Assembly (NCBI GenBank): GCA_963791815.1
Contig: CAWBTT010000001.1
Coordinates: forward strand, 41,720-105,719
Source: an uncultured Candidatus Micrarchaeota archaeon
GTDB taxonomy: Archaea > Micrarchaeota > Micrarchaeia > Anstonellales > Bilamarchaeaceae
Reading direction: 5' to 3'
Length of the DNA: 64,000 nucleotides
Shown: one piece after another, positions 18,201 through 52,953 of the stretch
Position numbering within the stretch: position 1 is the stretch's first letter
Layout of the letters: each line of letters begins with the position of its first letter
The notes under the pieces: generated by a model
What the model saw: the letters and a program-made list of their open reading frames with translations, nothing else
Database searches by the model: none
Told to the model about the DNA's origin: nothing
Position numbers and translations under genes: made by a program

Positions 18201-18350
18201 AATATTGTTCTTGTATAAAAGTCTTTATAAATCCCTATTTGACATTTTTTGTAACATTAATTCCTGCAACATTATGCGCCGCTGTTTTTGCAACTGAGTC
18301 TGACTAATGAAGTTATGTGCACTTTATCAGGAGAAGAACAGAAGGAAAAG

Positions 18351-18436
18351 TGCAGGGGAAGAGATTCGAACTCTTGCACGGACTAACCGATTAGGCCCTC
18401 AACCTAACGCATTTGACCAGGCTCTGCCACCCCTGC
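18351..18436 (-). tRNA. tRNA-Leu (anticodon GAG)
   Basis: Manual cloverleaf: acceptor GCAGGGG/CCCCUGC, anticodon arm UUAGG-UUGAGGG-CCUAA, long variable arm (CGG..CCG), T arm AAGAG-UUCGAAU-CUCUU, discriminator A. 86 nt. Confidence 0.9.
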
Positions 18437-18551: not shown

Positions 18552-19208
18552 TCACTCTTTCTTTTTAGTAGTTTTTTTAGTTGTTTTCTTGGTTGTCTTT
18601 TTCGCTGCTGCCTTCTTTTTTGGAGCTGCTTTCTTCTTCGGTTTGGTTCCAAGAGCCTCTTCGATTGCCTCAAGGTCGCCTTCAATCTGGTCGCATGCCC
18701 TCGTCATTACATCGGCAGGCGGCATCTGATAGAAACTCTCGACAAACATCCTGATATTCTTCTCATCTTCGCCATAGCCAACAAGGCCGGCCTGGAACTT
18801 CGCGTGCTTTCTTGCGGTTCCAAGAATGGCTTTGGCCTCAAAACGAATGTGCTGGTTCGGGCCAAGAGTCGCTATATGAATCTTGCCCTTTGCTATGTTG
18901 ATGTCTTTGTCAGAACTTTCCACATCAGAGGCATAGACCGTCTTTGGACCTTCAGCGTCACAGGAGAAAACTATCTCCGCACTCTCTGGAGTCTTGTCCG
19001 GCGTTGTGATTGGCAAAAGACCAAGCCTGTGCGCCAGATATTCATCCCAGAACGCGCTCGTGTTGTCATAGTAAACTACTGTGTCTATTGCCAAAACAGG
19101 AACTCGTGACATTGCGAACCTGCGCACAACATTGGCGAACGTGGTTGAGAAATCAGAGGCAAGGAACTCAATCCGGTTCTCGTGTTTCTTATCGAGTACA
19201 AGCTTCAT
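18552..19208 (-). CDS. rpoD: DNA-directed RNA polymerase subunit D (Rpo3) with Lys-rich C-terminal tail
   Basis: N-terminal [21 protein letters not shown]...[12 protein letters not shown] matches the Rpo3/alpha-like dimerisation domain. The C-terminus is [30 protein letters not shown]. Confidence 0.9.
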
Positions 19209-19783
19209 ACTCTCCTTCCTCTTCTGCCGCCCTTTCTCTTCATGGAGTCTGTGGGCAGCGGAGTAACATCTTCAATCCTTCCGATTCTAACGCCAGTTCT
19301 TGCGATTGTCCTCACGACTGCCTGAGCACCTGGCCCGGGCGTCTTGAGTCCGACTCCTCCTGGAGCGCGGATTTTCACATGTACATGAGTAATCCCTTTG
19401 TCTTTGAGGGTGTTGACGACCCTGATTGCAGCCTGCATGGCAGCATATGGCCTTCCTTCTTCCCTGTGAGACTTCACGACCATTCCGCCGCTTGCCCATG
19501 CGAGGGTCTCGGCGCCGCTCAGGTCGGTTGCTGTGATTATTGTATCATTCTTTGATGAAAATACGTGGAGAACCGCGAGCCTTGTTTTCCTTGGCTTCCT
19601 TACAGGAACTGCCGCCTTTTCCGGCTCTTCCTTCTTCTCTTCAGCATTCTCCTCTTTAGGTGCTTCCTTTGGGGCTTCCTCTTTTGGAGCCTCCTTAGGC
19701 GCTTCTTTTGGAGCTTCTTTCTTTGGCTCTTCCTTCTTCGGCTCCTCCGCCTTTTTCTCTTCTTTCTTTTCTGCCATGAACAT
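19205..19783 (-). CDS. rps11: 30S ribosomal protein uS11 with about 60-aa K/E/A/P-rich N-terminal extension
   Basis: Core [19 protein letters not shown]...[14 protein letters not shown]...[19 protein letters not shown] overlap with rpoD. Confidence 0.9.
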
Positions 19784-19787
19784 TCAC

Positions 19788-20408
19788 CTATGCTGCCTCA
19801 GGCTTTTTTTCTGCCTTCTTCTCTACAGGCTGCTCCGGAGGTTTTTCCGGCGCGGGAGCTTCTGCCTTTGGAGCTTCTTTCTTCTCCTCTTTTGGAGCCT
19901 CTTCTTCATCCCCTTCAGAATGAACTGAAATGTCAATAGGCTTTGTGTATATGATTGATGATTCATCTTCAAGATTTACCATCACGCCGGGGCGTGTTAC
20001 TCTCCTCCCGTTCATGCTGACAAAACCGTGTGTGATGAGCTGCCTTGACTGTTTCATTGTTCTTGCCAAGCCTTTTCTCTGGACGATTGTCTGAAGTCTT
20101 CTCTCAAGGATTACTTTGACATCCAAACCAAGAATGTCAGCGACATCTGTGCTGTCTTTCACAAAGCCCATCCTCTTAAGCTTCTTCAGGATTTTCTCTG
20201 AGTCTGCCTTTCTTTCTTCTTCAGAGACTGCCTGAAGGCGTCTGGCCTCTCTCCTATACTTCTTAAGAGCGGCTGCTGCCCTCCAGAGTTCGCTTGTGTT
20301 TTTCAGGCCATATTCTATTCTCAGGCCCTTATCATGCGCAACTCTGTCCACATCCCACAGTTTCTTGGGACGGTCGAATTTATTTCTAAGTCTTCTTGGA
20401 TCGCCCAT
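19788..20408 (-). CDS. rps4: 30S ribosomal protein uS4 with about 45-aa acidic/Lys-rich C-terminal extension
   Basis: N-terminal MGDPRRLRNKFDRPKKLWD and an S4 RNA-binding domain (RRLQTIVQRKGLARTMKQSRQLITHGFVSMNGRRV). Confidence 0.9.
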   Translation of the reverse strand: MGDPRRLRNKFDRPKKLWDVDRVAHDKGLRIEYGLKNTSELWRAAAALKKYRREARRLQAVSEEERKADSEKILKKLKRMGFVKDSTDVADILGLDVKVILERRLQTIVQRKGLARTMKQSRQLITHGFVSMNGRRVTRPGVMVNLEDESSIIYTKPIDISVHSEGDEEEAPKEEKKEAPKAEAPAPEKPPEQPVEKKAEKKPEAA

Positions 20409-20412
20409 TCAA

Positions 20413-20994
20413 TCACTTCTTCTTTTCCGCTGCCGGCTTTGCGCCTGTCGCGGCCGCTACAGATTTCCTGATAACACCGACTGCCATTCCGTGCCTTCCA
20501 GTGTTCTTGGTTCTCTGTCCTCTTGTCTTCTGGCCAAATGTGTGCCTGAATCCTCTCCATGAGAACATCTTCTTTTCTCTGTCAACGTCTTGGCTGACCT
20601 CGAAAATAAGGTCGTTCATGATTACGTGCCTATCGTTTCCGCTTGTATGGTCAGTGTTTCTGTTGAGCAGGAATTTTGGAACATCATATTTCTCGAGGCT
20701 GAAAAGGAGATTGTCTATGTCTTCAACCTGCTTCTCGGTCAGGTCACCAGACCTTGTCTCAGGCTTGATTTTGAGTTCCCTCTCAATTGCCTTTGCCGCG
20801 ATTGCCGCGACTGTATGTCCGATTCCTCTGACGTGGAAAAGAGCCCTCCTAAGTGGGACCTGACCCTTGACATCCTTGCCTGCGATACGGACAATTCCCC
20901 TGAAGCTTTCTTTCTCGTCTGCCTTAGGTGCCTCCCTCTTGGCTGGAGGTTTCTTTTTTGGTGCTTCTTTTTCTTTCTTTACTTTCTTTGCCAT
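20413..20994 (-). CDS. rps13: 30S ribosomal protein uS13 with about 30-aa Lys-rich N-terminal extension
   Basis: Core FRGIVRIAGKDVKGQVPLRRALFHVRGIGHTVA...WRGFRHTFGQKTRGQRTKNTGR. Confidence 0.9.
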   Translation of the reverse strand: MAKKVKKEKEAPKKKPPAKREAPKADEKESFRGIVRIAGKDVKGQVPLRRALFHVRGIGHTVAAIAAKAIERELKIKPETRSGDLTEKQVEDIDNLLFSLEKYDVPKFLLNRNTDHTSGNDRHVIMNDLIFEVSQDVDREKKMFSWRGFRHTFGQKTRGQRTKNTGRHGMAVGVIRKSVAAATGAKPAAEKKK

Positions 20995-21254: not shown

Positions 21255-21399
21255 AAATACACCTTATTTAAGAGCCCCGATACTATTGTGTCTGATATAA
21301 CACTAGAATTACCGAGAAAAGGCAGAGATTAATTTAAAAGGTATAGTTATTTAAATATGTTCCTAAAGATGGCTTTCTGGTCTAGAACTACTTACTAAT

Positions 21400-21473
21400 G
21401 CCCCCGTGGTATAGCTTGGACAGAATGCAAGCTTGCGGAGCTTGAGACCTGGGTTCGAATCCCAGCGGGGGCG
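21400..21473 (+). tRNA. tRNA-Arg (anticodon GCG)
   Basis: Acceptor GCCCCCG/CGGGGGC, anticodon arm CAAGC-UUGCGGA-GCUUG, T arm CUGGG-UUCGAAU-CCCAG. The D-stem is weak (GUAU/GAAU), which lowers confidence slightly. Confidence 0.8.
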
Positions 21474-21477
21474 ATTA

Positions 21478-22323
21478 TTATATAGTGCTCAAAATGAGAC
21501 AGTTATCTCTTTTTCCATCGCCTATGTCTTTGAATATTTCCAATCCTTCCGGCGTGAGCCTCCCGATATCGAGCCCTTCCCCGATTGTGAATGGGCAGCC
21601 AAAGACAGTGTTATCCGGAGTTATGGCAAATAATGTCCTTCCGGCCGGGCAGAAAAGGTTCTCCTGGGCCAGCCTCTCCCCTTTTCCTCCGGGCCTGGGG
21701 CTGAATCCGGCAGCGAGATTCATCCTGAACTCATCCTCCTGATAATACGCCCTCACACCCCTGAGCAGCTTGAAGAAGGATGATTCTTGCTCCGCGTCCA
21801 TCACCATGGATGGGTCAAGGGAAGCTTTGCCTATCTTGGAATAGCGGAAGAAGCGGACCCTGTGCGCGCCCAAAGCCTTAGCCTTCCGACAAAGCTCCGG
21901 GAGCCCCTGGTAGTTGAGCGCGGTTATCAGTATGGAAAGGCAGACCTTCAGCCCCCCGCTGAGCACATTGCCTATCGCTGCCTCGATGGCAGAATCAGGA
22001 ATCGACCGGTTGCCCTCATCGAAATTATGGCTGATTATTACCTCTGATATGCCTTTCCCCTTCAAGGCCAGGACAATATCGGGCTCCCGGGCGGGGATTA
22101 TCCCGTTTGTGAGTATGTAATCCTGCCCCGCTTCCTTGTAGCAGTCGAGATAGCGCAGGTCCAGGAGGTTCTCGCTGCCTGAGAATGTCACCCTGAATCC
22201 CTGTGACATCAGCCTCCGCGTTGTCTCAAGCGCCTCTTTCGAATCCCTGGCTCCTTTATATGGTATATAGCAATAGCCGCATCTCGCGTTGCATTTGGAA
22301 TTCAGCATCAGCACTACTTGCAT
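21478..22323 (-). CDS. radical SAM protein with C-terminal SPASM/twitch-like Cys motif (rSAM-1)
   Basis: CNARCGYC (CxxxCxxC) begins at residue 11. C-terminal FCPAGRTLFAITPDNTVFGCP resembles an auxiliary-cluster motif. The stop lies 4 nt from the tRNA-Arg 3' end. Confidence 0.8.
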   Translation of the reverse strand: MQVVLMLNSKCNARCGYCYIPYKGARDSKEALETTRRLMSQGFRVTFSGSENLLDLRYLDCYKEAGQDYILTNGIIPAREPDIVLALKGKGISEVIISHNFDEGNRSIPDSAIEAAIGNVLSGGLKVCLSILITALNYQGLPELCRKAKALGAHRVRFFRYSKIGKASLDPSMVMDAEQESSFFKLLRGVRAYYQEDEFRMNLAAGFSPRPGGKGERLAQENLFCPAGRTLFAITPDNTVFGCPFTIGEGLDIGRLTPEGLEIFKDIGDGKRDNCLILSTI

Positions 22324-22342
22324 GTCCTTGAATCTGGAGAAT

Positions 22343-22420
22343 TCAGAGCCAAAGGCCGCGGACCAAAGGGGCGGGGCTGGCCCTTTTGCTGTGCATCAAT
22401 CCAATTCTCTTTCGGTCCAT
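22343..22420 (-). CDS. 25-codon mini-ORF (MDRKRIGLMHSKRASPAPLVRGLWL) between the DUF2156 and rSAM-1 genes
   Basis: The ATG at 22420 is preceded by GAGGTGA (22426-22432) at 5-nt spacing, the same SD used by other operon-internal genes here. It is below the 60-aa cutoff of the ORF track. Confidence 0.25.
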   Translation of the reverse strand: MDRKRIGLMHSKRASPAPLVRGLWL

Positions 22421-22459
22421 GGCAATCACCTCGATTATGGGATTTCGGGGTTTTCCACT

Positions 22460-23455
22460 TTATATGAATATGTAACAAATTCCAGCGTGAGGGCTTAGGC
22501 TCATTTTTCCGGATTTTTTCCACAATCCCGAGAAACCAGTCGGGTGAAACAGAAGAAAAATCAGATAAAGGTCGGCAATCCATACTTTTTTTGAGCAATA
22601 TGCGAATCTTGGCTCCCACCTGGGATTGAATTTTGATTTAAACCTGAATTGATTCTTTGCCGGGTACAGAGTATTGCCATGGACATACAACAAGTCCAGT
22701 AATAGGTTAAAATGACTGCCTCTGTGACCGTTGGAATTAATACCTGGGACAAAACCAAACGAAATTTCCATTACCCCACAATCCCCCAGAATCTCGCAGA
22801 CTTTTGAGATTAATAATTCAGACGCTCCGTTTGGGCTTTTCTTTCTGGTCCTTATTATATCCAGATATGCGATGTGTTCGTCGATACAATAAACGGATAT
22901 GTATCCAAGAATCTCTGGCCCTTTTTTGGCTGCGAATACCCTGCAGTTGCGTGAATCCAGATTGTTATTGACTATAAAATGTATGAAATCAGTATTCTTT
23001 TCAGATATCCATTCTTCATCTATCCCCCTAAGTAAATGCCATTGGCTGCGCTCAAGTTCAAACACTTCTATGCCCCTGCGGTTGGCTGATCTTGAGGCGC
23101 GCTTTATTTTGTCGCAACCAGATAGGGGGATTGTGATTATCGAGTCATCTCCGATGTGATATTTCCCATAGTGGGCGAATATGCCTTCGGTATCCTGCTT
23201 AGTACAGAAAAATATGGGCCGGAGGTTTTCCTCATCACAAAAGTTTTCGAAATGCTTCAGGATACTGCCTTTTTTTTCCATACTGCATATTGGTTCGCCC
23301 AATACAACTGCAAGGTTTTGAATCCTTGAATATGCGATGAACCCTCCGGGAGCATGAAACTTTTCCTTATCTTCTGAGAGAACCAAGTGGGATACTGGAT
23401 TGTTTATATGTTTTTTCAGCAAATCATATTCAATATCGATTGAATGTGAAGCCAT
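22460..23455 (-). CDS. stand-alone DUF2156 / MprF C-terminal-like aminoacyl-tRNA-dependent transferase domain protein
   Basis: C-terminal LYPAKNQFRFKSKFNPRWEPRFAY matches the (F)K.KFNP.WEPRY signature of LPG_synthase_C. No TM flippase domain. Start set at the ATG at 23455 (MASHS...). Confidence 0.7.
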   Translation of the reverse strand: MASHSIDIEYDLLKKHINNPVSHLVLSEDKEKFHAPGGFIAYSRIQNLAVVLGEPICSMEKKGSILKHFENFCDEENLRPIFFCTKQDTEGIFAHYGKYHIGDDSIITIPLSGCDKIKRASRSANRRGIEVFELERSQWHLLRGIDEEWISEKNTDFIHFIVNNNLDSRNCRVFAAKKGPEILGYISVYCIDEHIAYLDIIRTRKKSPNGASELLISKVCEILGDCGVMEISFGFVPGINSNGHRGSHFNLLLDLLYVHGNTLYPAKNQFRFKSKFNPRWEPRFAYCSKKVWIADLYLIFLLFHPTGFSGLWKKSGKMSLSPHAGICYIFI

Positions 23456-23479
23456 GGGAATATATTCTAAAGTAAAAAA

Positions 23480-23488
23480 TTTATATAA
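23480..23488. promoter_or_regulatory. shared near-palindromic TATA box of a divergent leaderless gene pair
   Basis: TTTATATAA is centred at 23484, 29 nt from the minus-strand ATG (23455) and 30 nt from the plus-strand ATG (23514). Confidence 0.35.
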
Positions 23489-23513
23489 CATTTACTCGGC
23501 AGATTGCCCGAAC

Positions 23514-24512
23514 ATGGTAATTTGGGCAATGACCAACAAATGCAACTTATCCTGCAGGGGGTGCTCTTTTTCGAAATTGAAACAAAAGGCAGAGGTGGGC
23601 TTGGAGGATATCGACATTGCCATAGATTTTTTCAAGGACAATAATGTGAAGATGGTGGCTTTGACTGGCGGCGAACCCCTAATGTTACCGCATTTGAAGG
23701 ATTTGGTTGAGAAGCTCAGGATGAACAATATAGTAATCGCATATATCGCGACCAATGGCACCTTGGTTGATGATGAGAAGGCGAAAATACTTGCCCAGGC
23801 AAACATCACTGGGCTTTCTGTGAACCTTGATTATTTCCTGAGCGAAGGCAGTCCGAGGGCGGCTGAAGGGGAGAGAATCAGAAACGTTGTGTCGGCATTG
23901 AAAAGGAACTCTGTCAATTTCTATGGCGGAGTCATCATTTCAAAAATAACAAAGGATATTGAAAAAACCTGCAACGAGATGAGGTCGCTGGGTATTGAAA
24001 AAATCTCATTCTCATACCCGCAAATGAAACAGATATCATATATGGCCGCCTCGGAGGACCCGCTTCTCGACTTGTCCGGAGATGAGGTTGTAAAGGTGGT
24101 TGAGGAGATAAAGGCCATAAAGAAGAGGATTCCGGTTTATAACACGGATGAGTCTTTGGATGAGTTCGCAAGGTATTATGGGGGCAGGGGATTCTGCTAC
24201 TCTTGCATGGGAGGAAGAAGGATTTTCTACCTTGACTGGAATCTGGACCTTTACCCATGCTTCAATAAGAAAAAAATTGGCAACCTAAATGAAGTGAACA
24301 AGCTCCCATCCTGCGAAGCCTCATGCAAAAAGTGCTCCCAGCACGCATTCAAAGACCCCAGCATTTTTTACCATGCAATTGAGGGCTTATACTTGATTAA
24401 GAGAGACATCTTTTCTGGAGACATATCAGCCGCCTATGAGACCCTCAAATCAGAACAAATGAGGGGTTCAGCAAAATCGCTTTTTGAGATAGCAAGAGGG
24501 CCATTCATCTGA
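23514..24512 (+). CDS. radical SAM protein with SPASM/twitch-like C-terminal domain (rSAM-2)
   Basis: CNLSCRGC near the N-terminus, GGEPLM SAM-binding motif, and C-terminal FCYSCMGGRRIFYLDWNLDLYPC...CEASCKKC. Start set at the ATG at 23514 (the alternative is 23454). Confidence 0.8.
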   Translation: MVIWAMTNKCNLSCRGCSFSKLKQKAEVGLEDIDIAIDFFKDNNVKMVALTGGEPLMLPHLKDLVEKLRMNNIVIAYIATNGTLVDDEKAKILAQANITGLSVNLDYFLSEGSPRAAEGERIRNVVSALKRNSVNFYGGVIISKITKDIEKTCNEMRSLGIEKISFSYPQMKQISYMAASEDPLLDLSGDEVVKVVEEIKAIKKRIPVYNTDESLDEFARYYGGRGFCYSCMGGRRIFYLDWNLDLYPCFNKKKIGNLNEVNKLPSCEASCKKCSQHAFKDPSIFYHAIEGLYLIKRDIFSGDISAAYETLKSEQMRGSAKSLFEIARGPFI

Positions 24513-25236
24513 TGATGTCGCTATAATCGCCAGGCTCAGGATATTTGCCAAGAAAAATCATCAAATCAGTCAGCAACCAAAATTTTAATGTGTTGAAATA
24601 ACCAAGCTTTTCGAATCTTCTATTTGAAAGTTTCACCCTCATCCCCCAGTTGAAATTTAATCGGTGGTAATACGGGGCCAGCCTCTTTGAGTATTCAATG
24701 TCCTCACACAGTATGCTGCGGTACATTCCAGTATTGAAGAAAAACTGTCTTTTGATGGCGATATTATTTCCGGAAAAATACCAGAAGCCAAGATGTTTTG
24801 TTATCAGGTTTGAATAGAATATCGAACTTGACAGCAAATCAGACAATAGATTGCCATAATGAGTAGGGCCGCCAACTGCCAGAGCGCCCCCATTGAATGA
24901 AGTGGACAGTTTTGTGAGCCAACCCGGACATGGTATTGAATCAGCATCAAGGAAGGCAAGTATTTCACCGGAGGATTTCATGGCGCCGAAATTCCTAGCG
25001 TCCCCGATACCGCTCCTTTTTCTCTTATACACTCTACAACCATGTTTTTTTGCGATTTCAATCGTCCGGTCCTTGGAATTCCCATCAACTATGAGAATCT
25101 CATAATCGGAGAAATCCGATGACTTCAATGCCAAGAGGCATGCCGAGAGGTTCTCCTCCTCGTTATACGTTGGTATGATAACGGATATTTGAACATTTTT
25201 TGTTGGGATTGAAACACCATTATTTTTCTTTGTCAA
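24505..25236 (-). CDS. family 2 glycosyltransferase, last gene of the crt operon
   Basis: ISVIIPTYNEEENL, ILIVDGNSKD and FLDADS (DxD) motifs. 4-nt overlap with crtYd. Confidence 0.85.
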   Translation of the reverse strand: MTKKNNGVSIPTKNVQISVIIPTYNEEENLSACLLALKSSDFSDYEILIVDGNSKDRTIEIAKKHGCRVYKRKRSGIGDARNFGAMKSSGEILAFLDADSIPCPGWLTKLSTSFNGGALAVGGPTHYGNLLSDLLSSSIFYSNLITKHLGFWYFSGNNIAIKRQFFFNTGMYRSILCEDIEYSKRLAPYYHRLNFNWGMRVKLSNRRFEKLGYFNTLKFWLLTDLMIFLGKYPEPGDYSDIIR

Positions 25237-25546: not shown

Positions 25547-25864
25547 TCACTTCACGTATTTCTTCACAGCCTCCCAGACAATTATGTAGAAGAAAGGTAT
25601 CACTATGAAGAAAGCCAGCTCCTCCACGGGCTGGTTCACTATCACTATTCCGAGCATCTTGTCTAAACCAAAGGACCAGTGGCCAAGCTCTGTTGCCGCG
25701 ATGTCCCAAATCACGAATATTATCAATACGGGAAATATTGCCCTGAGGGCAAGCTTGTAGTCCAGCCTGATTTTCCCCACATAAGATATAAGCGCTGTCG
25801 AAAGGAGAACAAGAATCAGATATATGAGATAGAAAAATTCATCCAAATCAAACACCAAAATCAT
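25547..25864 (-). CDS. crtYc: lycopene cyclase domain protein (heterodimeric type, subunit c)
   Basis: 105 aa, 3 TM helices, PVEELAFF motif and WDIAAT..GHWSF. Confidence 0.8.
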   Translation of the reverse strand: MILVFDLDEFFYLIYLILVLLSTALISYVGKIRLDYKLALRAIFPVLIIFVIWDIAATELGHWSFGLDKMLGIVIVNQPVEELAFFIVIPFFYIIVWEAVKKYVK

Positions 25865-27338
25865 CCTTTATCCTCAACTCAAGAAGTTTTGATGACATCA
25901 AAACTATTGGCAAGCCTCCCCCCGGATGGGTGCTGGCCCCGACGAAATAAAGGTTCTTGATTTTCGGGTCTTTGTTCGGGGGGCGGAAAGCGGCCGACTG
26001 CAGAAGGGTCGGTGAAAGGCCGAAGGTGGCGCCTTTTTCAAGATTGAACTCCTCGGCCCAATCCTCCGGGGTAATCATTCGCTCATAAACAATCCTTTGC
26101 CTGATATCTGACATGCCTATTGAAGAGAGCCTGTCAAGAATCCTCTCCCTGAAGGCCTTTTTCTGCTTTTTCCAGTCTACTTTGCCGCTCAAATTCGGAA
26201 CCGGCACAAGCACGTAGATGACAGATTTGCCCTTGGGGGCAAGGGTGGGGTCATGGAGTGATGGATTGGCCACATATACCCCCGGCATCTCAGGCAGGAC
26301 TTTCTTCTTGAAAACATCGTCAAGCAAATCCGTATACTCCAGAGGCAAACTGAAATTGTGGTGCTCTGTTTCGTATGAGCCTTCCACCCCAAGATAAAGC
26401 ATGAATGTCGAGCAGCTTGTAGCAAGGGATTTGATCTTCTTGTCTTTCATATGCGGACGCTGCCGCTCAGGAATGAGCTTAAGGTATGTGTAGGGAAGGT
26501 CCGCATTTGAGATTATTATATCCGCGAACTCTGTTTTTCCATCTTCAAATTCGACCCCTTTGGCAACTCCTCCATCAATGATTATTTTTTTCACTGGTTT
26601 GTTTTTCCTAATTTTGATTTTTTCTTCTCCGCACACCTTTCCCAGCGCATCTGCGACTGAGTAAAGGCCGCCTTCCGGATACCATACCCCCTCAGTAAAT
26701 TCGATATATGGGACAATTCCGTAGACAGAAGGGATGGCATCTGGCCTCTCACCCAGGTAAATGGCCTGGAGCGAGAATGCCATCCTTACGCGGATATCTG
26801 AGAAGTATTGGCCGGTTTTTGAGTATAAATCCGTGAACGCGCCTCCCGAGATGAGCGACATGATTCCGGCAGGAGTGACCAGGTCAAGAGGAGAGTCGAA
26901 ATTCTTCATAATAAACTCATTCATGGCAATGTCATAGTATTTTTCATAGTCTGACATGAATTTTCTGTAATTTGGCGCGTCACCCAGGTTTATTTTTGAT
27001 ATGTTTGAAAACATTGTTTTTGGGAATGCTGATGGCTCTAGAACAGTTCCGTCATCGAAGTAGAGCCGGTACACCGGGTCGAGCTGATTGAGTTTCAAAT
27101 AATCATGGATATTGCGCCCGATATCGGAAAAGAATCCCGTGATAACGCTGGGCATAAGAAGCAGCGTTGGGCCCCGATCTATCCGGAAACCTTTCTCCTG
27201 AAAATTGCTGAGCCGCCCCCCAAGGATATTCCTGCGCTCAAAAATCGTGACATCAACTCCAAGGCGTTTCAACCTCACAGCCGAGGCCATGCCCCCTACT
27301 CCGGCTCCTATGATTATGGCTTTCATCGAGTTATTCAT
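25848..27338 (-). CDS. crtI: phytoene desaturase
   Basis: 496 aa. N-terminal FAD fold KAIIIGAGVGGMASAVRL and C-terminal LYFVGASTHPGGGLP, typical of CrtI. Confidence 0.9.
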   Translation of the reverse strand: MNNSMKAIIIGAGVGGMASAVRLKRLGVDVTIFERRNILGGRLSNFQEKGFRIDRGPTLLLMPSVITGFFSDIGRNIHDYLKLNQLDPVYRLYFDDGTVLEPSAFPKTMFSNISKINLGDAPNYRKFMSDYEKYYDIAMNEFIMKNFDSPLDLVTPAGIMSLISGGAFTDLYSKTGQYFSDIRVRMAFSLQAIYLGERPDAIPSVYGIVPYIEFTEGVWYPEGGLYSVADALGKVCGEEKIKIRKNKPVKKIIIDGGVAKGVEFEDGKTEFADIIISNADLPYTYLKLIPERQRPHMKDKKIKSLATSCSTFMLYLGVEGSYETEHHNFSLPLEYTDLLDDVFKKKVLPEMPGVYVANPSLHDPTLAPKGKSVIYVLVPVPNLSGKVDWKKQKKAFRERILDRLSSIGMSDIRQRIVYERMITPEDWAEEFNLEKGATFGLSPTLLQSAAFRPPNKDPKIKNLYFVGASTHPGGGLPIVLMSSKLLELRIKDDFGV

Positions 27339-31023: not shown

Positions 31024-34000
31024 TTATTTCTTCCTGCCAGCGCCCCTTCTCCAGACTATCACTCCAGCCAGCAGGAGTGCAAGCAGGAGCACCAGGAAGA
31101 TAAGGCTTATTGTCTCGTCAAGGACCTGCGTGTCAGGCACATCCTCACCAGAAACCGGCTTTGGCAGAGCGTTCACCTTGATGGTCTCTACTGGCTCCCC
31201 GTCCTTAAGCAGAGTAAGTTCATATGGACCCTCAAGGTTCAAGGGAAGCGTCAGTTTCCCGTTTGAGTCTGTCCTTCCGTTCAGTATCCTGCCATCAGGA
31301 AGCTTAATCTGCACTTCGCAGTTCGCGCATACGCCGCCGCCCTCAGTCGCGTTTACAGTGATTTCCTCGCCTACAAACGCTGATTCTGGACCCTCAAGGT
31401 CGCGTGTTGGTTCACAGAGATTGTCTTGGCACACATAGCCTTCTGGGCAGTCTGGGCAGCCTTCCTCATCACCGCACTCATACTGGACCCACTCGTGGTC
31501 ATCTGCCATTCCGCAGAGGCCGGTCACATCTTCGCAGAATCCTGAATTAGCGCCCTCAGCTATGTTGCAGTATTCGGAGCTCTCACATTCCTCATCAGTT
31601 GTGCACCCCTCATCCTCAACACATTTGTTGTCAACGCAAGACTCAAGCATCTTGCAGTCAGAATCAGAGCAGCATTCGTACGGATTGCACGTGTGATTTT
31701 GCACATAGCCGCATGAGCAGTCGACTGGCTGGCACATGTTGTTCAGGCATTGTTCATTGTCCAGGCACTCGGCATCCTCAATGCACCCGAGTTCGCACTC
31801 GCTGCAAAGCACAAGAGTTTTTACTGTATCAGCTGACTGGTAGCCTGTTTTTGATGCCAGAATCTTCACCGGAATTCCGCATCCGACAAAGCCGAACTCG
31901 CCGCTGCTGTTGGTCGAGCCTATCGCGACATCGTAGAGCTGGTCCTTGTGGAAGACCTGCACACTGGCACCCTCAATGTCGTTTCCGTTTGAGGTTATCG
32001 TAACAACGCTGCCATTGCAGTTTGAGGAGAAGCTTATTTGGAGTTCATCTTCAGGACCAACTCCCCCGTCATCGTCATCGCCACCAATGAACTCAAAGAG
32101 GCCGACGATTGTACTTTCAGTGATTGCCTCATATGAGAGCTCATTGTTTGTCTCATTAGGAGTGCTGTTCATCCAAAGCCAAGTTCCATTGTCATAGAGG
32201 GCAAGCCTCAGTTTTGGTTCCAGGTAATCTGGCTCAAGTTCTGATTCGAGCCAGTACATACCAAGCCAGTCTATTGAGACTCCGCTTGTCAGGTTGGTAA
32301 TCCCAAGGAACTTCCCATTGAATGAGCGGAAGTATGTGGGATCTGGCCCTGGAGCAGCTACCCACTCAAGACTGTAAGCAGATGCCACCATATCATCAAC
32401 CGAAACGTTGGAGTAGTTCGTCAGGTTTCCAGCGTCATTGTCTATTATCACGTTATTGAGCGTGACCATTATTCCGCTTCCGTCAATCACAACATCCGGC
32501 GCTGCATTGTTGAAGTAGTGGTCATTGGTAACAACGGTGTTGTTCGAGTCCCGAATTCCCAGTCCCACACCCCAATTGACATCTGGGTGGCCATGGGCAG
32601 TGTTGTCCATGAGGACAGTGTTGTCTGCCGAATTGATGTTGAATCCAGCCTCGCCATTGCCATATGCGGTGTTGTCAGCGAACGTGTTTCCAGGAGACTG
32701 GAATGCAATGAATCCGCTGAGGTCATTGTTGTAAGCAGTATTGTTTGTTATGTTATTTGCGCTGCTTGTGCTCTGGCTTACCGATATTCCGTTTCCTCCC
32801 TGCTGGTTGTAGGCTGTATTGTTTACTATATCATTGTTGTCCGAATCAGAAGTCACCCCAATACCATCATTGACATTGGCGAACATCTCGTTCCTGAAAA
32901 TGTCGTTGTTGTCTGAGTTGTAGAGATAAACTCCGTCCCTTCCGTTGCGGCACATGACTGAGTCAGCGATTGTGTTGGAATTTGCTCCGTCAAGGTGAAC
33001 TCCCTGCGCATTGTTGTCGCAGAAGTAAGATGGGTCAACCAGGTTTCCGGTTGCAGATTCCATCCTAAGGCCATCATCGTTATTCGAACCATTGACGTTG
33101 ATGAAGAAGTTGTTGTTTGACTGGTTTGCAAAGAAGCCGATGTTGTTCTGGTCGGCGTTGCACCCCGTCAGGTTGTGGCTTCCTCCCTGGTCCAGGTGGA
33201 AACCAATGGTCTGTACCGGGCCTGTGGCGTTGCAGTTAAGGAATGTATTTCCACTGCTTGTAGTTGTCCTGAAACCATCAAAGACATTGTTGAAGGCGAT
33301 GCTGTCCACAAAGCGGTTGTTGTCTGAATTTTGGATGTAGTATCCCATCTGCTGGTTTGATGCTGCGTTGTTGTCAGTCAGGTTGTTGTTGTCTGAGTTG
33401 CTCAGGTAGAAGCCGTAGAAACCGTTTGCTTCTGAGTAACTATTCTCAACAACATTGTTGTTGCTGCTCGAATCCAGGATGAAGCCGTGTTGGGCGTTGT
33501 TGTATGCGCTGCTGTCCAGTATCGCTCCGTCGCTTGTCTGGTAGTAATATACCCCCCTCGTATAGTCTGACATGTTCGGGCAGTTGCGGACAGTCACGTT
33601 TGTGAAAGTGCCGTTTGAGACTACTGCGTGTGTCAGGCCCCCGGTGCCGTTGTTGGTTATGCTGTATCCGTCGCAGTCAAAGACAACATCGGATGATGCA
33701 ATCTTGATGCACGCGGTTCCGACTATCGGGGTTGCGTTGTTTGTTGAACCCTCGATGTCGTCAGTAAGTGTGTATGTTCCTGCCGAAGTAATCGGAGCAG
33801 GACATGCCCCCCCTGCAAGAATCGCGAACGTGCTGAAACTTGAGAGGTCCTCAAGCGAAAGCTCGTTGTTCACAGTGTCAGGCGTCCCGTTCAGGAGTGA
33901 CCAGGTTCCGCTGTAATCCCAGAGCTGCAGCATTGACTCGTCAAATCCTGGGAGTTCTGCAGTATTCCAGTGCCAGGTTATATCCTCTATTGTGTCTGCT

Positions 34001-36099
34001 GAGCCAGTATCATCTATCTCAATGAACTTCTGGTTGAAGCTCACCATCGGGAATGGGAGCGCTGCAGGCTGATTGTCCCAATCCATAGTATATGTGTCAT
34101 TGGTCGAGTCAGATAGGGATATGTTAGTGTAGTTGGTGTAGGTTCCGTCCGAGTCAAACACCACGCCGTCCATAGTGTAGTCAAGATTTAGAGAGGTTCC
34201 GGCGGCGCCCAAGTCCTCCCCGTTTCCATAAAGGTGGTCGTTGTGCAATCCAACTTTCGAGCTGTCCCGTAGCTGAACACCATAAGCTGAATTGTCATAT
34301 ATTTCATTGTCAAAGAGCTGGGCGTCATTAGAGTTCCAGTAAATCTCGATTCCGTCCGGGTTGTCGTGAAGTCTGTTCGCTGTTATGTTAGTGTATTCTG
34401 AAGAGAACAGATAGATTCCCGAATTTCCGTTTGAGTAAGCGTCGTTGTCAAAGATCGTCGTAAAGTCAGATCCGGTGCTAAGCCAGATACCATGGTTGTT
34501 GTCAGTTACATCATTCCCGCTAAGGCGGTTGTGGTCTGCGGAGAAAAGACGAATTCCCTCGTTTGTGTTGGATGAGCAGTTGTTGCCGGTAGCGTTGTTG
34601 TATTCCGAGTTGGAGAGCATCAAACCAATGTTTGAGTTGTCAAGGGCATCGTTTCCTGTGATGCGGTTGTAGTCGCTTGTGCTAAGATAGAATCCTTCAG
34701 CGTTTCTCTCTGCCGTGTTTGATGTGAGGTCAAGGTCAGTTGAGTTGCCAATATAGAATCCCCGGACATTGTCAGCTGCGTAGTTGTTGTCCAGCGTGCT
34801 GCTGTCCATGGAATCTATGTGGAATCCGTTCTGCCCATTTATCGAACCGTTGCAGCCAATAAAGTCATTGTCATAAAGGCCCACCGAGGCGTTCGAGCGG
34901 TATGCATAGAACCCATGCTCAGTGTTGCTGTATGAATCAACATTGTTGATTTCATTTCCAGTTGCCGGTCTTGGGGATCCTGGACCTTCGCTTGGCGGGA
35001 TATAATAATTTGTTATTGCAACCCCTGAGAGTGTGTTCGAATATGCGTCACTGTTTGAGAGGGTGTTGTTGGTCGAGCCATTAATCAGGTATCCATAAGC
35101 ACCGTTACTGTATGAGTCGCAGTTTGTCACAGTGTTGTTGTTGCCCTGGATGTTTACACCGCTCTGGCCGTTCCCAGTCGCGAGACAGTTGACTGTAGCG
35201 TCAACGCCGTATATCGAGAAACCATGTTCCCCGTTGTTGGTCGCGTTGTTATCAGTAAGGCTGTTGCCCACTCCGCCAACTCCGAATCCGTTTTCAGTGT
35301 TGCTCTCGGCAAGGTTGTCAGTGAATACATTGCTCTGGCCGCCGATTGAGAAACCGTCCTCAGTATTGCCGTAGGCGTAATTGTCGGTAAACACGTTGTT
35401 GTCGCCGAAATTTATGAATCCGATGTCATTCCCTGAAGAGTGGCAGTTTGTGACGAGGTTGTTCACGCCCTGGATTTCAGTTCCCCATAGGGTTGAGTCC
35501 GTTGTGTTGCAGTCAGAAATATTGTTGCCGTTAGTATCTACATTTATTCCGAAGGTATCCCCCTCAGTATAAACTCTTGTGATGACATTGTTGTTCGAAC
35601 CCTGCAGAAGGGTCAGCGTGGAATAGCCGTCATATCCATTGATATCTGATATCTGGTTGTTTGTCGAGTTGTACCTAAGGTACATTCCATTTTCCGGATA
35701 ACTGTTGTATATAGTAATATTAGAGAACTGGCTGTTTGATGTGTTCCAGATTTCAACATGGTGGGAGTAGCCTGTTATGTTCGGGCAGTTCCGCACGGTG
35801 ATATTGGTGATTTTTGCCGATGAATTGTCATTGACAAAAATACCGTATCTTGCCTGCGGCGGAAGGGCGGCGTTGTAATCTATCGAATAACCATGGCAGT
35901 CCAATAGGACATCGGAGCTACGGACCACTATGCACGCGCTGCCTAACCCTGCCGGCACTCCCGCACCAGTCAGGTCGTTAATCATGTCATATGTCCCGGT
36001 GGACGTGATTGCCTGGCATGATGAAACATCAACAGAAAAAACCAGGCCGCTAAAGGCCAAAAGAATCATAAATACAACAATATTTCTCGACATGACCAT
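31024..36099 (-). CDS. giant surface protein: two parallel beta-helix (PbH1/NosD-like) modules, Cys-rich modules, Ig/CarboxypepD_reg-like domains, C-terminal TM anchor
   Basis: 1691 aa. Signal peptide. Dozens of N/G/S-rich approximately 22-aa beta-helix rungs (..NxIxxNxxxxNxxxGIxLxxS..). The module CxxITSxGTYxL...ACI...DCxGYSI occurs twice. GGDDDDGG linker. C-terminal LIFLVLLLALLLAGVIVWRRGAGRKK. Confidence 0.85.
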   Translation of the reverse strand: MVMSRNIVVFMILLAFSGLVFSVDVSSCQAITSTGTYDMINDLTGAGVPAGLGSACIVVRSSDVLLDCHGYSIDYNAALPPQARYGIFVNDNSSAKITNITVRNCPNITGYSHHVEIWNTSNSQFSNITIYNSYPENGMYLRYNSTNNQISDINGYDGYSTLTLLQGSNNNVITRVYTEGDTFGINVDTNGNNISDCNTTDSTLWGTEIQGVNNLVTNCHSSGNDIGFINFGDNNVFTDNYAYGNTEDGFSIGGQSNVFTDNLAESNTENGFGVGGVGNSLTDNNATNNGEHGFSIYGVDATVNCLATGNGQSGVNIQGNNNTVTNCDSYSNGAYGYLINGSTNNTLSNSDAYSNTLSGVAITNYYIPPSEGPGSPRPATGNEINNVDSYSNTEHGFYAYRSNASVGLYDNDFIGCNGSINGQNGFHIDSMDSSTLDNNYAADNVRGFYIGNSTDLDLTSNTAERNAEGFYLSTSDYNRITGNDALDNSNIGLMLSNSEYNNATGNNCSSNTNEGIRLFSADHNRLSGNDVTDNNHGIWLSTGSDFTTIFDNDAYSNGNSGIYLFSSEYTNITANRLHDNPDGIEIYWNSNDAQLFDNEIYDNSAYGVQLRDSSKVGLHNDHLYGNGEDLGAAGTSLNLDYTMDGVVFDSDGTYTNYTNISLSDSTNDTYTMDWDNQPAALPFPMVSFNQKFIEIDDTGSADTIEDITWHWNTAELPGFDESMLQLWDYSGTWSLLNGTPDTVNNELSLEDLSSFSTFAILAGGACPAPITSAGTYTLTDDIEGSTNNATPIVGTACIKIASSDVVFDCDGYSITNNGTGGLTHAVVSNGTFTNVTVRNCPNMSDYTRGVYYYQTSDGAILDSSAYNNAQHGFILDSSSNNNVVENSYSEANGFYGFYLSNSDNNNLTDNNAASNQQMGYYIQNSDNNRFVDSIAFNNVFDGFRTTTSSGNTFLNCNATGPVQTIGFHLDQGGSHNLTGCNADQNNIGFFANQSNNNFFINVNGSNNDDGLRMESATGNLVDPSYFCDNNAQGVHLDGANSNTIADSVMCRNGRDGVYLYNSDNNDIFRNEMFANVNDGIGVTSDSDNNDIVNNTAYNQQGGNGISVSQSTSSANNITNNTAYNNDLSGFIAFQSPGNTFADNTAYGNGEAGFNINSADNTVLMDNTAHGHPDVNWGVGLGIRDSNNTVVTNDHYFNNAAPDVVIDGSGIMVTLNNVIIDNDAGNLTNYSNVSVDDMVASAYSLEWVAAPGPDPTYFRSFNGKFLGITNLTSGVSIDWLGMYWLESELEPDYLEPKLRLALYDNGTWLWMNSTPNETNNELSYEAITESTIVGLFEFIGGDDDDGGVGPEDELQISFSSNCNGSVVTITSNGNDIEGASVQVFHKDQLYDVAIGSTNSSGEFGFVGCGIPVKILASKTGYQSADTVKTLVLCSECELGCIEDAECLDNEQCLNNMCQPVDCSCGYVQNHTCNPYECCSDSDCKMLESCVDNKCVEDEGCTTDEECESSEYCNIAEGANSGFCEDVTGLCGMADDHEWVQYECGDEEGCPDCPEGYVCQDNLCEPTRDLEGPESAFVGEEITVNATEGGGVCANCEVQIKLPDGRILNGRTDSNGKLTLPLNLEGPYELTLLKDGEPVETIKVNALPKPVSGEDVPDTQVLDETISLIFLVLLLALLLAGVIVWRRGAGRKK

Positions 36100-36152: not shown

Positions 36153-39100
36153 CTATTTTGACCTGCTCCTCCAGTAGAGTATGGCCCCGACCACAATCAA
36201 GAGCAGTAGCAGGAGGAATAGTATGGAGAAATCAAGCCCTCCAGTCTCAGTCGGCTTCTCAGGCTCATCGGGAGCCGGTTTGGGAAGCGCATCAACAGTG
36301 CTTTCGGCTCCTATGGCTCCGGCCATGACGAGCTTGTAGGTTCCTTCCATGTTCAGAGGGAGACTGAATCCACCCTCCGAATCTGTCTTTCCGCTGAAAG
36401 TCCTGCCATCTGGAGAGGTCACGGTGACATTGCAGCCTGCGCATGCCAATCCTCCTTTGGTGGCTGAGAGGGTCACGTTTTCCCCGACGAAACCAGATAT
36501 GGGCCCACTAAGGGCGCTGGTTTCTTCGCACTCGTTGTCCGTGCACACATAACCTGATGGACATAAGGCGCAACCAGCTCCAGTGCCGCACTCATAAACG
36601 ACCCAGGAATGGTTGTCAGCGTATCCGCACTCCCCTGTGACAGGCTCGCAGCTTCCCCCCGATTGACCTGATGGGATGTTGCAGAAATCTGCAGCGCTAC
36701 ATTCTGAATCAGAAACGCACTCTGCCTCAGGTTCAATTACAGGCTCAATGCACACTCCCTCAACGCAGGTTTCGTTTCCTGTGCAGTCGGTATCGAGAAC
36801 ACATTCAGGAACCGCTACAGGCTCGGCGCAAATGTTCGCGATGCATAGCTCCCCTTCAGGACAGTCGGCATCGACATTGCATTCAACGGCGCAACTGCCG
36901 CATGAGACAAGCTGCTCTGCAATCACTTCAGTGCCATAGCCATCCTTCTTCGCTGTTATCTTGACATTCACTCCGCAGCCTGTAAATGTGAAGGTGCCGT
37001 TTGAATCCGTGTTCCCGGATGCGACTGGAGAGAGGGTATTGGCATTGTCCACAAGGACCTCAACCTCATCTACAGGCAATCCGGCATCCAGAACAGTCAC
37101 TGTGCTATTGTCGCATGATGTGTTGAATGATACTGTGAAAGACTCGCTGGAGCCGCCCCCATTATCATCATCGTCGCCGCCCCCAAATTCCCAAACAGCG
37201 AACGTACTGAATGTGTCCACATCCGAGAGAGATATTGTGTTCGCAACATCATCTGGAGTTGAGTTATGGAAGGTCCAGTTATCTGAAGTATTGAATTTCG
37301 CAAGCCTGAAGTTGGTGTCAATGTAGCTGTCAAGCAGAAGCTCTGATTCCAGCCAGTTCCACACAATGTGGTCTATTGAGACTGCTCCAAACTCCCTTGA
37401 GATGTTCACGAACTTGCCTTCGAATGACCTGAACTCAGGCAGTAGAGGCGCTGGCTCGCTGTCCCAGTCAATTGAATACTGTCCGTCCAAATCAACGTTG
37501 TCTGTCAGGGAAATGTTTGTGTAATTGCTGTAGTTGCCAGTAGGATTGTCGAATATTACTCCAACTAGGTACAGGTCAAAAGGCCATGAGAAGGCAGATT
37601 CAACTACCATGTCAAGGGCGTTGTTGTAATAGTGGTCATTGGTAACCACCGTGTTGTTCGAATCAAAGATGTAAATACCATTGATTGAGTTGTTGAACGC
37701 TGTATTGTCAGAGAGGGTCTGGTTATCTGCTGTGATGTCAAACCCATACCGATTCTCATATGCAGAGTTGTTGGTAAACACATTGTCAGTTGAGAGAAGA
37801 GTCGAAACCTCGATGCCGCGAAAGGTATTCCCATGGGCCAGGTTGTTTGTGACCAGGTTGCCAGGGCTTGTTGAAAGCTCGATGCCGTTGTTGCTGTTGC
37901 CCCATGCAGTGTTATTGTTGACCGTGACATTCCTGCTTGATGCCAGGAAAATTCCGTTGAGGTTGCCTGATACCAGGTTCCCCTGTATTAAGCTGTTGTT
38001 AACGTTTGATACGAAAAGTCCATCATCAGCGGTGTTGTCGCAGAAAACAGAATCCAGTATTGTCAGGTTGTCAGATAATGCGACGTAGAGTCCATGGTCG
38101 CTATTGTCACAGAAGATTGACGGGTCAATTAGGATGTTGCTGGAGTTGGATGCATCAAACCCTGCATCCCCATTGAGAGATCCTCTTACATCAGTGAAAA
38201 TGTTGTCCGGACTTGATTGCAGGTTGAATCCATCCTCAATATTGTTGGTGCTGTTATCCCCATTGAACGTATTGCCTGTGCTCGAATCAAGGAAAAATCC
38301 ATTGTTTGCATTGGAATAAACGTTGTTGTTTGAGAGGGTGTTGCCCCCCACTGAATCAAATGCTATACCGTCCCCGCTATTTCCGAATATTGTATTGCCG
38401 CTAAGAACATTGTTCCCTGAGCCTAACGTGAAAAGAATTCCGTCGTCATAATTTCCGCTTATCCTGTTTCCTGAGAAGGTGTTGCCTCCAGAGTTGCCTG
38501 ATATTAAAACCCCCTCAAGACCAATTGTCTGTCCGTTGCTGGTAATGTTATTGTCAGTATATGTGTTGTTGCCCGAAGATACAGAGGCTGATAGTCCCCA
38601 GTTGGCGCTGTTGGAAATCACGTTATCGGTGACAGAGTTTCCGGATGCGCCGGTCAGGAGCAAAAGGCCGCTTCCATCGTTGCCCTGGATGCGGTTGTGT
38701 GAGAGAGTATTCCCAGTTGAGTTGATGCCGATGAACATTGCGTTGTTCCCGCTGTTGCTGACTGTGTTGTTGTGGATTGTCGTTCCGGTAACCGTTGACA
38801 TTGGGAAACCGTTGAGTCCGTTATTGTCAAGAAGGTTCATCTCCACATAACTGTTTGAAACATTTGCAAGAACAATCCCATACAGGCTGTTGTCCGAGGC
38901 GTTGTTCAGGCCCACGTAGAGGCTTGCGCCGCGGTCTATGTAAATTCCAGCCTCGGAATTGCCATGGAGTCCATTATCATAAATTATAGTGTTTGATGCA
39001 TCGTGAATGCGGATTCCCTCCTCAAAGAGGGTTATGTCCGGACAGTCGGTAATTAGTATGCCGCTTCTTGTTCCGTTGACCGCAACACCAATGGTGCCGG

Positions 39101-42905: not shown

Positions 42906-43016
<111 letters not shown>

Positions 43017-49586: not shown

Positions 49587-49653
49587 AAGGAGAAAAAGGT
49601 CTGAAAGCGCTTAAAAAGCTCTCTTTTTAAAGAGGAGAACATAAGGGATTAAT

Positions 49654-51473: not shown

Positions 51474-51516
51474 CACAAATAAATACTTTTCGACACTAAA
51501 TAAGAATAGGGATTTC

Positions 51517-51741: not shown

Positions 51742-51775
51742 GTTTTTTTATTATCTTCTTTACTGATTTTGTTTG

Positions 51776-52948: not shown

Positions 52949-52953
52949 TACTT

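Follow-up and report, generated by a model that had tools for sequence, protein, structure and literature searches.

Most of what is known about the tRNA-dependent aminoacylation of lipids comes from bacterial MprF, to which fungal sterol enzymes were added more recently. The MprF of Streptococcus agalactiae, a bifunctional protein with a flippase domain, acts on the product of a diacylglycerol (DAG) glycosyltransferase and converts the glycolipid glucosyl-DAG (Glc-DAG) into lysyl-Glc-DAG (PMC8893666). Freestanding DUF2156 enzymes without a flippase are represented by fungal ErgS, which aminoacylates ergosterol to ergosteryl-3beta-O-glycine (PMC8913301), and by ErdS (PMC7334510). A different chemistry, the remodelling of lipid-linked sugar head groups by radical S-adenosylmethionine (SAM) enzymes, is known from Cds and HpnJ; in this setting, HpnJ and HpnH are accompanied by the glycosyltransferase HpnI of family GT2 and the short-chain dehydrogenase/reductase (SDR) HpnA (PMC13459092). 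The present analysis concerns a stand-alone DUF2156 gene of an uncultured Candidatus Micrarchaeota archaeon, located in a stretch of 64,000 nucleotides (nt) that is termed the window (contig CAWBTT010000001.1 of assembly GCA_963791815.1, positions 41,720 to 105,719). The gene lies head to head with the gene of a radical SAM enzyme, rSAM2. We lean, if only slightly, towards the view that this pair is part of a conserved cassette, uncharacterised and present here in reduced form, for glycolipid head-group remodelling and aminoacylation (module B), and that a second radical SAM gene, rSAM1, together with its leader constitutes a separate module A. A first-pass annotation, made from the sequence alone, had joined the DUF2156 gene, both radical SAM genes and a small open reading frame (ORF) into one undescribed four-part tailoring system. 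The motifs on which it relied are all present where it had placed them, according to the ORF listing and to scans with hidden Markov models (HMMs; Table 1).

Orthologues of rSAM2, defined by a score of >400 bits on the rSAM2 family profile, were retrieved in 12 distinct genomic contexts from archaea and bacteria. In its full form, the cassette would comprise rSAM2, followed by a translationally coupled gene for a GT28 glycosyltransferase resembling monogalactosyldiacylglycerol (MGDG) synthase, an SDR and a second radical SAM enzyme, which is either a paralogue of rSAM2 or of the SPASM type; DUF2156, GT2, UbiA and a phosphatidylserine (PS)-decarboxylase-like gene would be variable members. The GT28 gene is located directly downstream of rSAM2 in 11 of the 12 contexts, the window being the single exception, and in the eight contexts with both gene calls recorded the two genes are spaced by 1-29 nt or overlap. 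A divergent DUF2156 gene is found in seven contexts (the window, L002, L003, L004, L008, L009 and L010), including L002, where its N-terminus is still encoded at the contig end; it is absent from all 162 loci whose radical SAM genes are only paralogues or distant relatives. Most contexts also contain the SDR and the second radical SAM gene.

The type I arrangement (the window, L002-L004 and L009 from Micrarchaeia) has DUF2156 head to head with rSAM2-GT28, a convergent GT2 gene and a SPASM radical SAM gene, to which a GalE-like SDR is added in L003. The convergent position of GT2 is kept in all five type I loci, and the GT2 orthologues are recognisable by 45-48% identity in L002-L004 and by 300 bits on the GT2 profile in L009. 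In type II (L008 and L010), the order is rSAM-B, a paralogous radical SAM gene, then DUF2156 head to head with rSAM2, followed by GT28 and SDR. Type III (L005 from Thermoplasmata and the contig carrying P0038) consists of rSAM-B, UbiA, rSAM2, GT28 and SDR, and type IV (L007 and L174) of the PS-decarboxylase-like gene, rSAM2, GT28 and a gene for an SDR-rSAM-B fusion protein. This fusion protein of 688 amino acids (L007, 12349-14415; L174, 10030-12096), whose SDR part is HpnA/OleD-like, is a natural Rosetta-stone case suggesting that both activities are directed at the same substrate.

The window copy has neither GT28 nor SDR nor the second radical SAM gene of the cassette. The 3' end of its GT2 gene overlaps rSAM2 in the way the type I GT2 genes overlap GT28, so that the arrangement looks like a clean loss of GT28, and the position of the type I SPASM radical SAM gene is taken by carotenoid genes. 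The claim of an undescribed system holds for DUF2156 plus rSAM2, whose synteny is kept across archaea and bacteria; its borders had been misplaced, however, with the neighbouring GT2 gene left out and rSAM1, whose close homologues never join the synteny, taken in. A literature full-text search in an incomplete library returned nothing on DUF2156 together with radical SAM enzymes or on aminoacyl-tRNA transferases together with radical SAM enzymes and lipids, and no publication on the cassette. A distant rSAM2 paralogue of 27-29% identity (L011-L029 and L095-L139) is widespread in Verrucomicrobiota, with further occurrences in Lucifera butyrica, Desulfobacca and an Akkermansia metagenome-assembled genome (MAG); its gene neighbourhood is not conserved, for which reason loci L011-L029 were set aside. 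Among the matches listed from a metagenome scan with the rSAM2 alignment, most belonged to this Verrucomicrobia-type paralogue, and L094 was the only orthologue.

The DUF2156 call of the first-pass annotation, including the lack of a flippase domain, withstood the HMM search. PF09924 matches the protein with 109.9 bits (E = 1.6e-31; cut-off 27.5 bits) over residues 24-297 of a 343-residue form and over profile positions 3-296 of 298, and residues 14-287 align with the aaPGS (aminoacyl-phosphatidylglycerol synthase) catalytic domains 4V36 and 4V34 at E values of about 1e-12. The active-site features were those defined in PMC7334510, namely D-x-x-R in GNAT II, F-K-x-K-F...W-x-P-R close to the C-terminus and a basic helix. 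D199-x-x-R202 and F-K273-x-K275-F are present, with D199, R202, K273 and K275 nearly invariant in 30 stand-alone homologues. Between the two halves of the protein lies the basic helix KIKRASRSANRRG; in DUF2156 enzymes, the basic alpha(+) inter-domain helix is the element that binds aminoacyl-tRNA (PMC7334510). The start at 23455 is consistent with the N-termini of homologues. From these sequence features, activity as an aminoacyl-tRNA transferase is probable. It differs from MprF/aaPGS by an identity of only about 25%, by its archaeal host, by its genetic coupling to a radical SAM gene, and by the lack of an N-terminal flippase or transmembrane domain: in the 331-residue protein PF09924 is the sole Pfam match, no fusion to PF03706 is seen, and the model of bifunctional MprF, NF033480, gives 95.7 bits against a cut-off of 600. 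In architecture it is likened to freestanding ErgS and ErdS, which are, however, eukaryotic and have no radical SAM or glycosyltransferase partners.

A word-indexed search with the DUF2156 protein returned only the protein itself, and an exhaustive search of 1.8 billion representatives yielded just five DUF2156 proteins at E<1e-30. Ranks 2 and 6 of this search are held by cassette proteins, P0115 of L004 and P0119 of L008; the presence of cassette members among the closest relatives implies that the DUF2156 and rSAM2 genes co-evolve. Scans of viral contigs for DUF2156 gave no match. On a Logan contig of the same organism (L001), the DUF2156 protein has 317 residues and a differing C-terminus (window 22460-22520 versus L001 2762-2842); since the C-terminal 27 residues of the window protein are encoded on L001 in a different frame, the two versions differ by an indel or in their assembly close to the 3' end.

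The second partner, rSAM2, is recognised by PF04055 with 69.6 bits (E = 4.6e-19; cut-off 29.5 bits) and contains the cluster motif CNLSCRGC and the invariant TGGEP as GGE motif. The word-indexed search gave about 55 full-length homologues of 31-58% identity, with source names including Thermoplasmata, Solirubrobacterales and Myxococcota; the closest orthologue, at 58% identity, is from a Candidatus Micrarchaeia MAG. The start at 23514 given by the first-pass annotation and the database most likely has to be moved to ATG 23454. Up to this codon the frame is open, and the 20 additional residues, MGIYSKVKNLYNIYSADCPN, align with the N-termini of the rSAM2 family and include an invariant Pro. With this start, the start codons of DUF2156 and rSAM2 overlap head to head (CCATGG), whereas the corresponding gap is 26 nt in L003 and 17 nt in L004. 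The palindromic AT-rich element TTTATATAA, which had been described as a TATA box shared by the two genes, does exist, about 25-32 nt from the DUF2156 ATG; it is located within the probable N-terminal coding extension of rSAM2, but despite this position it could serve as promoter box of DUF2156.

For the C-terminal part of rSAM2, six cysteines had been listed, of which the family alignment keeps only three (C251, C269 and C294 of the 352-residue form). As to the SPASM/twitch label put on both radical SAM proteins, the SPASM model PF13186 matches neither of them, and the three invariant cysteines of rSAM2 would be twitch-like. Its AlphaFold2 (AF2) model has a pLDDT (predicted local distance difference test) of 90, and the nearest solved folds found by Foldseek are anSME, viperin, CteB, BlsE, SuiB and SkfB (TM-scores of about 0.5-0.6, E about 1e-10). 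On anSME, CteB and SkfB the model superposes across about 300 columns. With anSME, CteB, SkfB, BlsE and viperin/MoaA, rSAM2 shares a partial TIM barrel and a C-terminal hairpin domain carrying cysteines; unlike SPASM/twitch enzymes, it keeps only three invariant C-terminal cysteines and has no recognition element for ribosomally synthesised and post-translationally modified peptides (RiPPs), referred to as RRE. Its C-terminus is compatible with a twitch-like three-Cys site, whereas a complete SPASM domain would not fit. In the PDB, rSAM2 is matched best in sequence by viperin-like enzymes, BlsE and MoaA, all acting on nucleotides or nucleotide-sugars. In MoaA, the free iron of a three-Cys cluster binds the substrate, and the likeness to rSAM2 is to be taken as a lead only. 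All NCBIfam scores of rSAM2 are far under the cut-offs, including those for Tes (36.7 of 450 bits) and HpnH (37.2 of 225), which places it outside both families. With the viperin/pVip profile NF038283 (cut-off 180), rSAM2 and rSAM1 score 40.7 and 19.9 bits; membership in anti-phage defence was rejected, the PADLOC pVip matches of 47 and 30 bits being confined to the N-terminal core. rSAM2 is an uncharacterised radical SAM enzyme in which a three-Cys auxiliary site is probable.

Considering the partner genes, the cassette would most likely tailor the head group of a membrane glycolipid or isoprenoid, with tRNA-dependent aminoacylation as one of the reactions. The cassette GT28 proteins have diglucosyl-diacylglycerol synthase as best match, and the SDRs of types II-IV are closest to HpnA, OleD or SdmB. 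In the proposed pathway, a membrane lipid or isoprenoid would be glycosylated by a glycosyltransferase. The sugar or head group, or a nucleotide-sugar precursor of it, would be remodelled in a radical reaction by rSAM2 together with the SDR and the other radical SAM enzyme. DUF2156 would then move an amino acid from aminoacyl-tRNA to a head-group hydroxyl in ester linkage, so that a cationic or zwitterionic glycolipid would result. The individual steps are supported by precedents: aminoacylation of a glycosyltransferase product by streptococcal MprF is the logic proposed for GT28 plus DUF2156, although MprF involves no radical SAM step; ErgS is a freestanding DUF2156 enzyme whose acceptor can be an isoprenoid-derived alcohol instead of phosphatidylglycerol; and Cds and HpnJ combine, as would the cassette, a radical SAM enzyme and a glycosyltransferase, in part with an SDR, on a lipid-linked sugar. 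Lipid aminoacylation, which the first-pass annotation had kept as a fallback, is thus a better reading than its RiPP-like one in view of the lipid and sugar enzymes among the partners, with the function itself deduced from context.

Some of the same enzymes would also fit protein or envelope glycosylation, in which an unusual nucleotide-sugar, the product of rSAM2 and the SDR, would be built by GT28, GT2 and GT4 into a cell-surface glycan on a polyprenyl carrier, with either glycan or carrier being aminoacylated by DUF2156. The substrates of the best PDB matches of rSAM2 agree with this, as do the GalE-like type I SDR, the additional resemblance of GT28 to MurG and the MraY-like GT4 genes found in the window and flanking L003. 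In types II-IV, however, the SDRs resemble the lipid-acting HpnA, OleD and SdmB and not sugar-nucleotide enzymes, and neighbours such as UbiA and the PS-decarboxylase-like protein speak for membrane lipids. Furthermore, characterised DUF2156 enzymes act, to our knowledge, on lipids, with the exception of VlmA. A cell-surface glycan as product is, hence, considered unlikely.

The acceptor in the window might be a special one. Its GT2 gene overlaps a lycopene-cyclase gene by 4 nt and runs in the same direction as crtI; by this translational coupling, a derivative of an isoprenoid or carotenoid may serve as acceptor in this genome. Carried further, the carotenoid that the crtI-cyclase operon provides would be glycosylated by GT2, and the glycoside would be modified further by DUF2156 and rSAM2, a route for which ErgS offers the example of a freestanding DUF2156 enzyme acylating the isoprenoid-derived alcohol ergosterol (PMC8913301). 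In addition, a full archaeal mevalonate pathway is encoded in the window. Yet the coupling of GT2 to crt genes, on which the carotenoid idea of the first-pass annotation can build, is specific for the window. No orthologous cassette for which DNA was retrieved contains crt genes; in those loci GT2 is paired with GT28 and the SPASM radical SAM gene, and crtB is absent from the window. Carotenoid tailoring is regarded as quite improbable, and glycolipid head-group tailoring is preferred.

rSAM1, the upstream neighbour of which is the DUF2156 gene, contains CNARCGYC at residues 11-18 and a C-terminal FCPAG...GCP motif; C11/C15/C18 and C225/C243/C275 are invariant in four homologues. With 19 bits, its PF04055 score stays below the gathering cut-off of 29.5, and its identity as a radical SAM enzyme follows from the invariant CxxxCxxC together with a profile-profile match to the rSAM2 family (hhalign probability 98.9%, E = 1.4e-17). 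The AF2 model, built from four sequences, is poor (pLDDT 60). Judged by the profile comparison (E about 1e-17), rSAM1 is a remote, shortened relative of the rSAM2/rSAM-B clade. Direct homology of rSAM1 to the type I SPASM radical SAM protein was rejected (BLASTP E = 1, hhalign E = 0.005).

Beyond the copy of its own organism, rSAM1 has three database relatives of 54-70% identity. These are found in unrelated housekeeping surroundings, beside histidyl-tRNA synthetase, RNA ligase and CarS-like genes, or pyrimidine and ribosomal genes, and none of them is accompanied by DUF2156, rSAM2 or the glycosyltransferases; scans of viral contigs for rSAM1 gave no match. The minus-strand unit of DUF2156, spacer and rSAM1 is, consequently, not conserved, and the four-part system falls apart at this point, with the mini-ORF being part of the rSAM1 leader. 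Module A is a separate orphan twitch-type radical SAM unit with a conserved leader.

The spacer between DUF2156 and rSAM1 comprises 136 nt and holds, as had been annotated, a 25-codon ORF behind GAGGTGA. This mini-ORF is the first reading frame of the leader (window, 22343-22470 on the minus strand), and a Shine-Dalgarno sequence, an ATG and a small ORF are found upstream of rSAM1 homologues also in L089 (9930-10080; 27 amino acids) and L092 (9915-10010; 33 amino acids), two genomes without DUF2156. The mini-ORF is, therefore, conserved in position, though in company of rSAM1, and the leader element clearly belongs to rSAM1 and not to DUF2156. The three leader ORFs are small and basic, of 25, 27 and 33 codons (lengths differing by multiples of 3), and their ATG follows a GGTGA element at a distance of 6-7 nt. 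Over a stretch of 27 nt, GGCTCTGAATTCTCCARATTCAAGGA, the leaders of the window and L089 are 96% identical, whereas the rSAM1 proteins share 63% identity. A TATA-like box at the DUF2156 stop codon has a similar counterpart, CATTTATAGTGG, at the same position in L089, implying that rSAM1 probably has its own promoter.

In all three genomes, the AUG region CCAUGRACC is predicted to pair with a segment 32-47 nt downstream. In the window, the 5' arm of this helix, GCCAUGGACCGAA (22411-22423), contains the AUG, and UUUGGUCCGCGGC (22355-22367) forms the 3' arm. The share of paired cells is 85% in register and 23-45% when the register is slid; both partners are exchanged in four pairs, such as C-G to U-A at -1 and G-C to A-U at +4, and the pairing value was reached by nine of 500 shuffles. 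The loops measure 41, 47 and 32 nt, and lengths differing by multiples of three would also fit a coding constraint. The folding energy of the whole leader is no better than that of shuffled sequences (z = -0.2, +0.3 and -1.3 for the three leaders), so that support extends only to the specific AUG-sequestering helix predicted here and not to a whole-leader fold. Rfam gave nothing in the spacer, and a C/D-box small RNA was rejected as a reading of the leader, L089 having no C box. Based on three sequences, the element may be a translated leader peptide, a RiPP-type precursor or a purely RNA regulatory hairpin.

The first-pass annotation had favoured the logic of RiPP or peptide-aminoacyl-tRNA ligase systems, according to which the mini-ORF would encode a precursor peptide matured by the radical SAM enzymes and extended or aminoacylated by DUF2156. 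The position of a small ORF with a Shine-Dalgarno sequence directly upstream of twitch-type rSAM1, kept in three genomes, would suit a precursor gene, and so would the in-frame length variation and the common C-terminal motif [LP]V[RH][GR][LR]W of the mini-ORFs. This motif, however, coincides with the 3' arm of the RNA helix with its compensatory changes, which would account for the conservation equally well, and in L092 the ORF reads through into rSAM1 and has a different C-terminus. The mini-ORF accompanies rSAM1 only, neither being found with DUF2156 or rSAM2 elsewhere, and an RRE/PqqD-like domain, a leader protease or an exporter did not turn up in the Pfam and NCBIfam scans of rSAM1, rSAM2 and their neighbours. 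DUF2156 has as conserved partners GT28, GT2 and SDR, joined by UbiA and the PS-decarboxylase-like protein, that is, lipid and sugar enzymes. A RiPP-like system is, thus, held to be very unlikely.

Several points weigh against a glycolipid-tailoring cassette as the explanation for module B. The window has no GT28, SDR or cassette-type second radical SAM gene, and its copy may be undergoing decay or have been rewired. Within the available contig, a DUF2156 gene is missing from five of the 12 contexts, which would make aminoacylation an accessory and not a core function. As its best PDB matches act on nucleotides or nucleotide-sugars, rSAM2 may do its work prior to attachment to the lipid, or its substrate may be a glycan without lipid. 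With rSAM1 being remotely related to the rSAM2/rSAM-B clade and adjoining DUF2156, a functional link in this particular genome is just conceivable. Finally, the chemistry proposed for the cassette is inferred throughout.

Table 1. Features of the region around the DUF2156 gene (window coordinates)
Feature	Position	Strand	Remarks
tRNA-Arg(GCG)	21399-21474	+	region boundary
rSAM1, short twitch-like radical SAM	21478-22323	-	281 aa (amino acids); independent gene, outside cassette
Mini-ORF (MDRKRIGLMHSKRASPAPLVRGLWL), first reading frame of rSAM1 leader	22343-22420	-	25 codons behind GAGGTGA
Conserved leader helix, 12-13 bp	22355-22423	-	predicted in all three genomes
TATA-like box (TTCATATAAAG)	22458-22468	-	about 43 nt upstream of mini-ORF ATG; overlaps DUF2156 stop codon; read from sequence
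Stand-alone DUF2156/LPG_synthase_C aminoacyl-tRNA transferase homologue	22460-23455	-	331 aa; PF09924 match
rSAM2	23454-24512	+	352 aa from ATG 23454 (most likely start); 23514 in database and first-pass annotation
Palindromic AT-rich element (TTTATATAA)	23479-23487		"shared TATA box" of first-pass annotation; present in sequence
Small GT2 glycosyltransferase	24505-25236	-	PF00535, 105.7 bits; overlaps rSAM2 3' end convergently; last gene of crtI-cyclase operon
Two lycopene-cyclase half genes	25547-25864; 25233-~25541	-	TIGR03462, 45.8 and 40.6 bits
crtI	25848-27338	-	TIGR02734, 482.6 bits; co-directional with GT2

The GT2 protein of the window does not belong to the arsenosugar-associated TIGR04283 (107.2 bits; equivalog cut-off 182). 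The archaeal-type mevalonate set of the window (2351-3604, 44365-46031 and 48831-53352) is complete and includes 3-hydroxy-3-methylglutaryl coenzyme A (HMG-CoA) reductase, a GHMP kinase beside DUF2666, an amino-acid kinase resembling isopentenyl phosphate kinase (IPK), a UbiX/UbiD pair, and the large and small subunits of AcnX; the organism thus produces isoprenoids itself. AcnX, DUF2666 and GHMP kinase are located near the rSAM1 homologue in L092, too. The window also encodes aEF-1beta, assigned by a Pfam scan, and ribosomal protein S13, both of which identify the host as archaeal. At 18552-20994 on the minus strand, the ORFs for RpoD, S11, S4 and S13 carry long low-complexity extensions rich in Lys, Glu, Pro and Ala, such as the N-terminus of S11 and the KK-rich tails of RpoD, S4 and S13; the names RpoD, S11 and S4 were read from the translations, and only S13 has a database name. 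Two giant surface proteins are encoded in tandem on the minus strand, one of 1691 amino acids (31024-36099) with a Cys-rich stalk and a C-terminal transmembrane anchor, and one of 1063 amino acids (36153-39344) with NosD/right-handed beta-helix repeats, to which the larger one is similar by eye. A tRNA-Leu (18350-18436) was called by ARAGORN and not by Rfam at the gathering threshold, and a weak Rfam tRNA (42944-43013, minus strand; 30.3 bits, cut-off 29) was not called by ARAGORN. On the plus strand at 63394-64000, the end of the window truncates an ORF with a B12-binding domain that may encode a class B radical SAM enzyme.

Summarizing, the co-evolution of DUF2156 with radical SAM enzymes and lipid glycosyltransferases in archaea and bacteria would point to an unrecognised class of membrane lipid head groups. 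Taken to its full extent, this would mean that the cassette makes a new class of radical-SAM-remodelled, tRNA-dependently aminoacylated glyco(isoprenoid)lipids in DPANN-like and Thermoplasmata archaea and in soil bacteria, and that the rSAM1 leader is a new translational riboregulator or precursor peptide; this wider proposal is tentative and, as a whole, rather doubtful. If true, a stand-alone aminoacyl-tRNA transferase system for membrane lipids would exist in archaea, and radical SAM head-group chemistry would, as far as was found, be coupled for the first time with aminoacyl-tRNA transfer. With the compact cassette, a directly testable gene set is at hand. Such lipids could be of use as biomarkers, and they could alter the envelope charge and the host-symbiont interactions of small-genome archaea.

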